From: an uncultured Flavobacteriaceae bacterium
Lineage (GTDB): Bacteria; Bacteroidota; Bacteroidia; Flavobacteriales; Flavobacteriaceae
Assembly (NCBI GenBank): GCA_963815225.1
Contig: CAWFGA010000001.1
Location: 258,952 to 322,951 of the forward strand
Reading direction: 5' to 3'
Length of the DNA stretch: 64,000 bases
Position 1 is the first letter of the stretch. Every line of letters begins with the position of its first letter. Below, in pieces: positions 3,191 through 6,180 of the stretch. Position numbers and translations under genes: made by a program. The notes beneath the pieces are model-generated. The model searched no databases. It saw only the letters and a program-made list of their open reading frames with translations, and had not been told where the DNA came from.

Positions 3191-3195
3191 TAACT

Positions 3196-3233
3196 ATATG
3201 GGGCAATGGGCTTAAATGTTCAATGTCCAATAT
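3196..3233 (+). repeat. Imperfect heptamer-based inverted repeat between atpH and atpA
   Basis: ATATGGGGCAATGGGC-ttaaat-GTTCAATGTCCAATAT; 11/16 Watson-Crick plus 3 G-U pairs. Confidence 0.5.
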
Positions 3234-3250
3234 CTTATATCTAATTAAAA

Positions 3251-4828
3251 ATGGCAGGAGTAAAAGCCGCTGAAGTATCAGCAATTTTAAAGAAACAATT
3301 ATCAGGATTTGATGCCACAGCTACCTTGGATGAGGTAGGAACAGTTTTACAGGTTGGTGATGGTATTGCAAGGGTCTATGGGTTAGCCAATGCCCAATAT
3401 GGGGAGTTGGTTGAATTTGATGGCGGCCTAGAAGGTATCGTGTTAAATCTTGAGGAGGATAATGTTGGTGTTGTATTATTAGGGCCTTCCAAACAAGTTG
3501 GTGAGGGAGATACCGTAAAACGTACCCAACGAATCGCATCCATTAATGTTGGTGAAGGAATTGTTGGTCGTGTGGTGGATACCTTGGGAACACCTATTGA
3601 TGGCAAGGGTCCCATAAGTGGTAAAACCTATGAAATGCCGTTGGAGCGTAAAGCACCAGGGGTAATTTACAGGGAGCCTGTAACAGAGCCTATGCAATCC
3701 GGTATCAAAGCGATTGATGCCATGATTCCGGTAGGAAGGGGACAACGGGAGTTGGTTATTGGTGACCGTCAAACGGGAAAGACTACGGTTTGTATCGATA
3801 CCATTCTAAACCAAAAGGAATTTTATGATGCTGGCGAGCCGGTATACTGTATTTACGTGGCTATCGGTCAGAAAGCTTCTACAGTGGCGGGTATTGCGCA
3901 AGTGTTGGAAGATAAAGGCGCAATGGCCTATACGACCATCGTAGCTGCCAATGCATCCGATCCTGCACCTATGCAGGTATATGCACCATTTGCCGGGGCA
4001 TCCATCGGGGAATATTTCAGGGATACAGGTCGCCCCGCTTTGATTATTTATGATGATTTGTCCAAACAAGCGGTTGCCTATCGTGAGGTATCTTTATTAT
4101 TAAGAAGGCCACCAGGACGTGAGGCATATCCTGGGGATGTTTTTTACTTGCACTCCAGATTATTGGAGCGTGCCGCAAAGGTGATCAACAACGATGCCAT
4201 TGCCAAGGAAATGAATGATTTGCCAGAGGTACTGAAGCCTATGGTAAAAGGAGGAGGTTCGTTAACGGCTTTACCCATTATTGAAACACAGGCAGGAGAC
4301 GTATCGGCCTATATCCCAACCAATGTGATTTCGATTACCGACGGTCAGATATTCTTGGAGCAGGATTTATTCAACCAAGGGGTAAGACCAGCGATCAACG
4401 TGGGTATTTCCGTATCTCGTGTAGGAGGTAACGCCCAAATCAAATCCATGAAGAAAGTGGCAGGTACACTGAAGTTGGATCAAGCCCAGTTCCGTGAATT
4501 GGAAGCATTTGCCAAGTTTGGTTCGGATTTGGACGCAGCGACTTTAAATGTTATTGAAAAAGGACGTAGGAACGTTGAAATTTTAAAGCAGGCCCAAAAC
4601 GATCCGTTTACGGTGGAAGACCAAGTTGCGATTATCTATGCCGGTTCTAAAAACTTGTTAAGGGACGTTCCTGTAGAAAAGGTAAAGGAATTCGAACGGG
4701 ATTACCTAGAGTTCTTGAATGCCAAGCATAGGGATGTTTTGGATACGTTGAAAGCCGGAAAATTAACCGATGAGGCTACGGATACCTTAACTGCGGTTTG
4801 CAAAGATCTTTCGGCGAAATATAAATAA
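3251..4828 (+). CDS. atpA: F1 ATP synthase subunit alpha
   Basis: GDRQTGKT Walker [23 protein letters not shown]. Confidence 0.99.
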
Positions 4829-4858
4829 GTTAAAAGTGAAGAACGATGGGTTATGAGT
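4828..4858 (+). repeat. Left arm of 31-bp imperfect inverted repeat flanking the four-helix-bundle gene
   Basis: AGTTAAA AGTGAAG AACGATG GGTTATG AGT; 23/31 identical to the reverse complement of 5184-5214. Confidence 0.7.
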
Positions 4859-5191
4859 AAATTAAACGAAAGTCCGATTAGGATTAAAAGTTTTTAATTT
4901 GCTTGTAGTATCGTAAAGTATAGTGATTCTCTAAAAAAGGATAAAGATTTTGAGTTAGCATCTCAATTATTGCGGAGTGGGACAAGTATCGGAGCGAATA
5001 CTAGAGAAGCGCAGCGAGGGGTTAGCAAGAAAGAATTCAAAAATAAATTTGGAATTGCTCTAAAGGAGGCTGATAAAACCATGTATTGGTTAGAAATATT
5101 GGAAGCTACCGGGAGAAAAGTCCCAGAGAATATGAAAATTAAAGGTGAAGAGTTAAAAAGAATTTTGGTGACAATAATCAAGAACTCATAG
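4853..5191 (+). pseudogene. Four helix bundle protein (23S rRNA IVS protein / Avd-like family) with in-frame TAA at 4895-4897
   Basis: MSKLNESPIRIKSF*FACSIVKYSDSLKKDKDFELASQLLRSGTSIGANTREAQ...KEADKTMYWLEIL; QLLRSGTSIGAN..EA and KEA..T.YWL are family hallmarks. Confidence 0.85.
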
Positions 5192-5214
5192 CTCTGCATT
5201 CATAACTTATAACT
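5184..5214 (+). repeat. Right arm of 31-bp imperfect inverted repeat flanking the four-helix-bundle gene
   Basis: ACTCATA GCTCTGC ATTCATA ACTTATA ACT, 7-nt periodic, complementary to 4828-4858. Confidence 0.7.
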
Positions 5215-5221
5215 CAAGTAA

Positions 5222-6082
5222 ATGGCCAATTTAAAGGAAATACGTAATAGGATTACATCCGTCTCATCAACGATGCAGATTACCAGTGCCATGAAAATGG
5301 TATCTGCCGCAAAATTGAAAAAGGCTCAGGATGCCATCACGGCGATGAGACCGTACTCGGATAAACTTACAGAATTGTTGCAAAGTCTTAGCGCAAGTTT
5401 GGAAGGTGATTCTGGAAGCAAATATGCCGATAACAGGACAGTGAAAAAAGTATTGGTGGTAGCCATTACCTCTAACAGAGGACTTTGTGGTGCTTTCAAT
5501 ACCAATATTTTAAAACAGGCCGTTCATTTGGCCGAGAACGTCCATACTGGAAAGCAAGTCGATTTTATGGCCATCGGTAAGAAAGCGAACGATTTTTTGG
5601 GGAAACGGCATAAGGTTATCGCGAATCATAGCAAAGTTTATGAAGACCTTTCATTTGATGCTGTTGCTGAAATTGCCGAAGACCTAATGGAATTGTTTAC
5701 CAATGGTGCGTATGACCGTATCGAGATTGTGTACAATAGTTTTAAAAACGCGGCCACTCAGATTGTTATGACCGAGCAGTTTTTACCCATTGTTCCCATG
5801 GAGGGGCAGAATAATGTGAGTGCCGATTATACTTTTGAACCTTCCAAAGTGGAAATCGTGGAGCAATTAATTCCAAAATCCTTGAAAACACAGTTATATA
5901 AAGGAATACGAGATTCATTTGCTAGTGAACACGGTGCGCGAATGACCGCGATGCACAAAGCTACCGATAATGCAACTGAGCTACGGGATCAATTGAAATT
6001 GACCTATAACAAGGCAAGACAGGCTGCGATTACCAACGAGATTTTAGAAATCGTAGGGGGAGCAGAAGCCTTGAACAATTAA
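5222..6082 (+). CDS. atpG: F1 ATP synthase subunit gamma
   Basis: ITSAMKMVSAAK, RGLCGAFN, RQAAITNEILEIVGGA. Confidence 0.99.
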   Translation: MANLKEIRNRITSVSSTMQITSAMKMVSAAKLKKAQDAITAMRPYSDKLTELLQSLSASLEGDSGSKYADNRTVKKVLVVAITSNRGLCGAFNTNILKQAVHLAENVHTGKQVDFMAIGKKANDFLGKRHKVIANHSKVYEDLSFDAVAEIAEDLMELFTNGAYDRIEIVYNSFKNAATQIVMTEQFLPIVPMEGQNNVSADYTFEPSKVEIVEQLIPKSLKTQLYKGIRDSFASEHGARMTAMHKATDNATELRDQLKLTYNKARQAAITNEILEIVGGAEALNN

Positions 6083-6147: not shown

Positions 6148-6180
6148 AAAACCCCACATTAATGTGGGGTTTTGTTTTTT
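6148..6180 (+). terminator. Intrinsic terminator of the atp operon
   Basis: AAAACCCCACAT-TA-ATGTGGGGTTTT followed by a T-rich tail. Confidence 0.85.

Follow-up and report, generated by a model that had tools for sequence, protein, structure and literature searches.

The spacer between two genes that we take, from their translated sequences, to be atpA and atpG appears to hold a decayed copy of a site-faithful cassette, exchanged as a unit with gene-less spacers, probably through recombination in the flanking genes, and encoding a protein that probably recognizes its own heptamers. We give this reading as a whole a probability of about one half. It is built on direct observation of the cassette's anatomy, its fidelity to one site, its stop-to-start exchange, its transfer between hosts, purifying selection on its gene, frequent decay and deletion remnants. 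The copy in the window, as we call the 64,000-nt stretch of Flavobacteriaceae DNA analysed here and in whose coordinates positions are given, is probably a defunct member of a poorly studied group of mobile cassettes akin to the gene-carrying inserts of rRNA.

Anatomy of the atpA-atpG cassette

The features of the region are as follows.

3251 to 4828, + strand: atpA, the upstream host gene (ORF list)
4825 to 5219, + strand: exchanged unit, 395 nt (joint of 4824 to 5220 in the X2 and X5 contigs; same breakpoints in G311/G313)
4826 to 4828, + strand: TAA stop of atpA, brought by the exchanged unit and overlapping the first heptamer
4827 to 4861, + strand: left arm, five RAGTKNN-type heptamer positions, one of them degenerate; holds the ORF's start codon
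4853 to 5191, + strand: pseudogene of 112 codons, four-helix-bundle (S23p) family PF05635/TIGR02436 (profile matches)
4895 to 4897, + strand: in-frame TAA, codon 15; Gln or Glu in most relatives; common to the X1 contig
5180 to 5215, + strand: right arm, complementary heptamers; encodes the ORF's last residues and stop and ends 6-7 nt 5′ of the atpG start
5222 to 6082, + strand: atpG, the downstream host gene (ORF list)
6148 to 6173, + strand: terminator-like hairpin 3′ of atpG (pattern scan; 2 found, 1.3 expected by chance)

The cassette takes up all of the 393-nt spacer, and the exchanged unit comprises, in order, the last base of the final atpA sense codon, the stop, the left arm, the ORF, the right arm and the atpG leader. 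G+C content is 33.6% over 4826-5221 as against 45.1% in atpA. An earlier note on this DNA had described a 31-bp inverted repeat, its arms built of degenerate 7-mers, around a four-helix-bundle ORF that fills the spacer and has its start and stop within the arms, and each part of that description was reproduced. Of the 31 positions of the arms (4828-4858 and 5184-5214), 23 match, and two of the mismatches could pair as G-U; 23 is the best 31-nt flank match, a score that neither 1000 shuffles (maximum 20) nor the genome's 2820 ORF-called genes (maximum 21) attained. When phased on the clade motif described below, the left arm resolves into AAGTTAA, AAGTGAA, one degenerate unit, GGGTTAT and GAGTAAA, and the right arm, reverse-complemented, into GAGTTAT, AAGTTAT, GAATGCA, GAGCTAT and GAGTTCT. 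The ATG and TAG of the ORF both lie inside these arms, and the ORF scores 65.5 bits against PF05635 (cut-off 33.8) and 80.3 against TIGR02436 (cut-off 24). It is the only gene of the cassette, which carries no transposase, and no Rfam match was found across 4800-5300. A pattern scan found no terminator-like hairpin within the cassette, which is therefore predicted to lie within the operon transcript.

Two further observations concern the same operon. The atpH-atpA spacer (3191-3250) holds a gene-less hairpin with 7-nt periodicity of another type, and atpB (597-1828) is read in two overlapping frames, 597-1511 and 1493-1828, indicating a frameshift or a sequencing error near 1500.

The window copy is decaying

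The earlier note had left the TAA at 4895 as either decay or a read error. A read error can be set aside, since a contig from a second strain (run X1), which covers 4400-5296 and differs from the window at 16 positions, none of them at 4895-4897, has the same TAA; the stop is thus real decay. A comparison with 75 relatives that have no stop shows additional changes in the window copy at four conserved residues (61, 75, 98 and 102), none of them present in X1; residue 75 is invariant in a cross-site alignment of 32 proteins. Judged by its sequence, the window copy is a pseudogene in which decay is still going on, and its main contribution is to document decay, and polymorphism between strains that are nearly identical.

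One clade keeps one site and moves between hosts

In the best 80 of 304 relatives in the species collection, which came from Maribacter, Flagellimonas, Aequorivita, Dokdonia, Kordia and other Flavobacteriaceae, the gene lay upstream of atpG in all 80 and downstream of atpA in all 79 that could be evaluated. The atpA-atpG proteins form one clade (21 rows, support 95 in a quick tree), within which arms of GAATT type on both sides mark a single protein subclade (support 100/99). Occupancy of the site varies. A draw of 300 family genomes gave 21 filled loci among the 29 best matches inspected, and 24 genomes of the genus divide into 3 filled, 2 with remnants and 19 whose spacer, 60-93 nt long, has no gene and is in most cases a hairpin built from another heptamer type. 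Two loci (L030 and L040) keep the arms and the ORF ends with the middle of the ORF deleted, and a third (L041) was also counted as a deletion remnant; the spacer is 28 nt, 21 nt or absent in some relatives (L041, L060 and L064). Empty alleles exist both within the genus and among near-identical strains.

The distribution does not follow the hosts. On a gyrB tree of 51 genomes, a sample enriched for filled sites, the state changes between filled and empty 11 times, 10 of which are forced by strong branches, and the element tree rejects four well-supported host clades (AU p 0.016, 0.0002, 2e-45 and 9e-5). An ordinary ancestral gene, inherited vertically, lost many times and flanked by chance repeats, would account for the clustering of the proteins by site. 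We consider it scarcely credible: the rejection of host clades already contradicts it, the repeats go far beyond chance, and filled alleles are nested among genomes that share one homologous empty hairpin. The transposase-less mobile unit proposed in the earlier note agrees instead with these trees, with the empty alleles and with the paired flanks of the paralogs.

Intact genes have a median dN/dS of 0.14 (52 usable pairs from 15 genes), a ratio indicating that intact copies are under purifying selection. Broken copies are frequent, making up 9 of 24 copies found by DNA similarity; a stop is present in 5 of the 80 best protein matches, a set that favours intact genes. Since the operon is essential and broken copies persist in it, the host does not need the protein at this site, and an addiction role is unlikely for the same reason. 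The atpA-atpG junction offers a clean test system: a single clade and a single motif are involved, close relatives differ in whether the allele is intact, broken, deleted or empty, and the breakpoints are defined.

The exchanged unit is the whole spacer

Contigs from a DNA run (X2) and an RNA library (X5), with 1-2 differences from the window in about 285 atpA bases, leave it after 4824, carry 86 other letters and rejoin it at 5220. Contigs of this type align about 26 nt into the spacer of G316, an alignment suggestive of the common AGTACT-type hairpin for the 86-letter empty allele; a pattern scan of the metagenome for this allele found nothing. A second sister pair has the same structure. 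On either side of the spacer G311 (filled) and G313 (empty) are 96-100% identical, and they do not differ at any of the last 18 informative flank sites before it or of the first 16 after it; they diverge within the last atpA codon and rejoin at the atpG start, with no duplication at the junctions. In both pairs a stop-to-start unit thus stands opposite a gene-less spacer with identical breakpoints, and either direction of exchange is possible. The shared breakpoints imply that the exchanged unit is the entire spacer, which takes the place of the resident one. Since the empty allele is another spacer, usually a different heptamer hairpin, and not a bare junction, the event is a replacement and not a simple insertion.

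Sharp borders of this kind can also come from old polymorphism whose flanks were homogenised by later recombination. No co-conversion of flanks was seen between G311 and G313, and the transfer is old (dS 0.43 to G302). Farther upstream in G311, 3.2-4.8 kb from the atpA end (locus L189), a G302-like stretch of 1.6 kb lies around the point where the atp operon begins; its likeness is 0.84-0.94 to G302 and just 0.56-0.85 to the sister G313. It is either a second transferred patch or a divergent allele, and a second G302-like tract in G311 fits ordinary patchy DNA transfer. The cassettes differ from insertion sequences and MITEs in that there is no transposase, the arms differ by junction, a single clade stays at a single site, and the junctions of the replaced allele show no duplication.

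Related cassettes occupy about 30 junctions

Genome G000 has four genes of the family, each flanked by co-directional genes, with purine-rich repeats 5′ and pyrimidine-rich repeats 3′. In a survey of the genus, 37 of 41 genomes had a family match, with up to 17 per genome. A wider set was assembled from 29 new loci, 40 regions chosen among 150 listed rows and the atpA-atpG loci. A profile search of these 133 loci gave 107 matches, which came down to 101, 84 of them intact, on removal of two window duplicates and of partial and locus-end matches. These 101 Flavobacteriaceae loci represent about 30 junctions (31 groups by downstream gene, a few singles being perhaps misplaced), and in 98 of them co-directional ORFs stand on both sides, placing the cassettes between protein-coding ORFs.

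Inverted heptamer arms recur across the set, as the earlier note had expected of paralogs. The mean arm-to-arm score is 29.7, compared with 16.7 for arms taken from different sites and 16.0 for 282 control genes, and 73 of the 101 loci exceed the control 95th percentile. Matches at a distance of 7 nt reach 0.47 in both flanks (0.30-0.32 in controls), with a second peak at 14. The heptamer type is specific to each junction and the proteins, in a quick tree, group by junction, three junctions having been entered by two or three clades. The overall correlation between protein and motif across sites is weak (rho 0.05). Cross-site protein pairs more than 60% identical share more arm words (mean 0.23 against 0.02-0.05; 18 pairs, 4 events). 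Three of the four recent cross-site moves went to a neighbouring junction within the same gene cluster.

At the methionine synthase junction (L066-L083, L097, L101, L104 and L106) translation of the right arm gives the product of the downstream gene an N-terminal extension (PTTNNQQPTT, for instance), and the repeats have thereby become part of a host protein.

Gene-less hairpins at the same and other junctions

G000 also has gene-less heptamer hairpins before genes that we presume, from their translations, to be atpC, a thiolase gene and leuD, and the last two of these junctions are filled in relatives. Across the 574 co-directional spacers of G000 such hairpins show no bulk excess (9, with 6.3 in shuffles), although the best matches are clear. 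The atpD-atpC spacer (L135:2209-2281; G000:C7:144708-144780) is likewise gene-less and forms a hairpin whose heptamer, GAGTT/AACTC, is that of the cassette; in relatives, many different heptamer types are found at this junction, and L028, L031 and several atpD-atpC spacers have a different palindromic element (GTCATTCC / GTCATCCTGA type) at the same junctions. Concerted evolution of the heptamers at atpA-atpG and atpD-atpC within a genome was not seen in 28 genomes, 2 of them unparsed.

These hairpins raise the question of whether the spacer serves the host. A hairpin after atpA or atpD could stabilise the upstream message and give the 3:1 subunit ratio, and the host might need some hairpin at both places; the four-helix-bundle gene would then be a passenger, or at times a host regulator. 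Some hairpin is indeed present in nearly all of the atpA-atpG and atpD-atpC spacers inspected, its type differing freely between the two junctions of one genome, and a table row in PMC5787105 lists one family member as transcribed in Flavobacterium psychrophilum. We nevertheless judge this account distinctly improbable: the same cassettes stand at about 30 unrelated junctions, some relatives manage with the short or absent atpA-atpG spacers noted above, and a pure passenger would not hold dN/dS near 0.14 while moving between genera.

The arms as RNA

The earlier note proposed that the unit loops its ORF out of a highly expressed mRNA. In the fullest form of this idea the cassette is an mRNA intervening sequence, in which the paired arms of the transcript would be cut by RNase III, so that the ORF is removed and the atp mRNA is split between atpA and atpG. 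The precedent is the insert in helix 45 of the Coxiella burnetii 23S rRNA, which has an S23p ORF, GACAGAT heptamers and a 28-bp stem cut by RNase III at the first repeat (PMC4990558). The genome encodes RNase III, the cassette is without a terminator, and the arms are able to pair, with a predicted duplex of -23.5 kcal/mol in the window and -37.3 in L036. Of the long stem, the predicted fold of the window copy forms only a part, and the inner left arm prefers a local hairpin (z -2.0). The expected number of arm-to-arm pairs is 15.8 in this copy; of five intact relatives, four have 25.7-38.5 and one has 3.8.

Several patterns speak against pairing in the mRNA as the way in which the unit works. 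G-U pairs are no commoner than A-C mismatches (143 against 150 in the 101 loci, 68 against 60 in the clade set), a comparison diluted by many other mismatches, and sense duplexes are not stronger than antisense ones (53 of 101; 29 of 77). In-register covariation is absent among the 77 distinct arm pairs of the clade, and among members of the GAGTT type the true partner of an arm is no better a match for it than a partner taken from another member (p 0.86). Moreover, in 43 of 79 relatives the left arm is followed at once by another complementary stretch, with which it closes a hairpin 5′ of the ORF (clustered on the tree, 5 changes). The arms of the clade have about four units each, with an AGT core that is 93-99% constant in both arms and variable positions 6-7; in 60 of 79 relatives the right arm stops 6-7 nt short of the atpG start, and its first unit contains the end of the ORF. 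Arms of this kind are more readily explained by a motif maintained in both orientations than by a stem adapted to pairing in mRNA, and their complementarity would then arise mainly because one motif stands in both orientations, not because matching positions co-evolve. Because the repeats can pair in any register, the arm data are still compatible with pairing. Taken together, the moving transposase-less unit of the earlier note is upheld and its looping out of the ORF is not. An mRNA intervening sequence is compatible alongside a site-faithful exchanged cassette, and we regard it as possible though rather unlikely; in the exchanged-cassette account RNase III could cut the stem without being required to. 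The X5 RNA-library contigs carry the empty allele.

Protein family and fold

The family is large and its function unexplained, with pentamer structures solved, and the cassette links it to intergenic heptamer repeats of the kind described in PMC4679880. In a table of PMC5524665 a family gene appears with guanylate kinase on one side and nadD on the other, and the passages found do not comment on it. A single-sequence structure model was poor (pLDDT 53). The predicted structure of an intact relative (pLDDT 93.6) is all-helical, with no nuclease domain in the model, and matches the Bacteroides S23-family structure 2RLD (TM 0.87) and, in Foldseek, Xanthomonas 2GSC; both structures have five chains.

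The earlier note also pointed to a fold shared with the DGR accessory protein Avd. The likeness is present and weak (Foldseek rank 37, E 1.1, TM 0.61, 16% identity), and the partner reverse transcriptase failed to appear: none is adjacent to the cassette, and a genus-wide comparison of PF00078 matches showed no coupling to the family. A non-autonomous retroelement, which would use an Avd-like pentamer to bring in a reverse transcriptase encoded elsewhere and place copies of the looped RNA at new junctions, would draw on this likeness, on the RNA stem-loop that Avd contacts with all five subunits, bases being flipped out between them (bioRxiv 10.1101/2023.10.23.563531), and on the three of four cross-site moves to a neighbouring junction. 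We think it very unlikely, given that six genus genomes (95-100% completeness, 5-10 family matches) have no PF00078 match, that two with a PF00078 match have no family gene, and that the one reverse transcriptase of G000 is far away, beside an unrelated gene. That enzyme, of 557 aa (L201:1099-2772, G000:C1), lies beside an ATPase/TOPRIM-like gene and is perhaps, we presume, part of a defence system.

A possible mechanism

We return to the site-faithful cassette exchanged with gene-less spacers. Recombination in the conserved housekeeping genes on either side would swap the spacer, and the cassette would be tolerated as harmless by supplying the upstream stop, a hairpin and the downstream leader. 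The pentameric protein may bind the repeated AGT core, present in about four units per arm, and may in some way favour the spread or retention of the cassette. The flipped-out-base contacts of Avd offer a model, by analogy only, of how a 5+2 repeat might be read; motif and protein are linked, so their co-inheritance is no proof of recognition. Copies that lose function would have their ORF deleted, leaving gene-less heptamer hairpins that could again be replaced.

More tentatively still, PF05635 genes may be the core of undescribed self-homing spacer cassettes, in which the pentamer reads its own heptamers and drives precise stop-to-start replacement without transposase, nuclease or reverse transcriptase, the scattered intergenic heptamer hairpins being remnants and landing sites and the ORF-bearing rRNA inserts a special case. 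We hold this to be unlikely on present evidence; if the protein does drive exchange, it would be a new way for DNA to move.

Relation to known systems

Homing endonuclease genes go through a cycle of invasion, decay and loss. The cassettes resemble them in site fidelity, horizontal spread, purifying selection with frequent broken copies, and remnants. They differ in having no nuclease domain, in standing outside introns and inteins, and in replacing a resident spacer.

The curators of TIGR02436 are said to hold that the rRNA location of the family is not conserved. The Coxiella 23S insert resembles the cassette in its length of about 400-450 nt, its terminal stem of about 30 bp and its tandem heptamers directly 5′ of the ORF start, and resembles the cassette family in its sense-strand PF05635 ORF, patchy presence, horizontal acquisition and ORF decay, as described in PMC4990558. 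The corresponding traits here are heptamer arms of about 30 bp, a PF05635 ORF on the transcribed strand (broken in the window copy), and sporadic presence with transfer. Unlike that insert, the cassette lies between protein-coding genes and not in a 16S or 23S rRNA gene, and it supplies a stop codon and a leader; the family spans about 30 junctions with junction-specific heptamers, and is known here from DNA, as against RNase III excision in Coxiella. The cassette is thus like an ORF-bearing intervening sequence in build and spread, and not a member of that class by location. Our literature search, which covered mostly openly available main texts, found no earlier description of such cassettes in mRNA operons, while the anatomy itself is already published for the Coxiella insert (PMC4990558). 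The protein shares with Avd (4DWL) a related four-helix-bundle fold and the pentameric state (PMC10053308, bioRxiv 10.1101/2023.10.23.563531), and differs in its low identity and in having no linked reverse transcriptase.

TAACTGA intergenic heptamer repeats occur in Beggiatoaceae, Cyanobacteria and Bacteroidetes (MacGregor 2015, PMC4679880). Like the right arm, they form short heptamer arrays a few bases 5′ of a start codon and are sporadic and apparently transferred, and the right-arm unit TAACTCA is one base away from TAACTGA. In that paper they are treated as direct repeats, not as the arm of a cassette, with S1, Csp or CsrA as proposed binders and no link to the present protein family, and a term search of its main text found no mention of intervening sequences or 23S. 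The origin and the binder of these repeats are open questions there, and the cassette bears on both. One-armed intergenic heptamer arrays of 6-10 copies were also observed in G000, at C3:196653-196726, C4:356567-356631, C6:18372-18415, C7:42314-42363 and C16:300459-300507.
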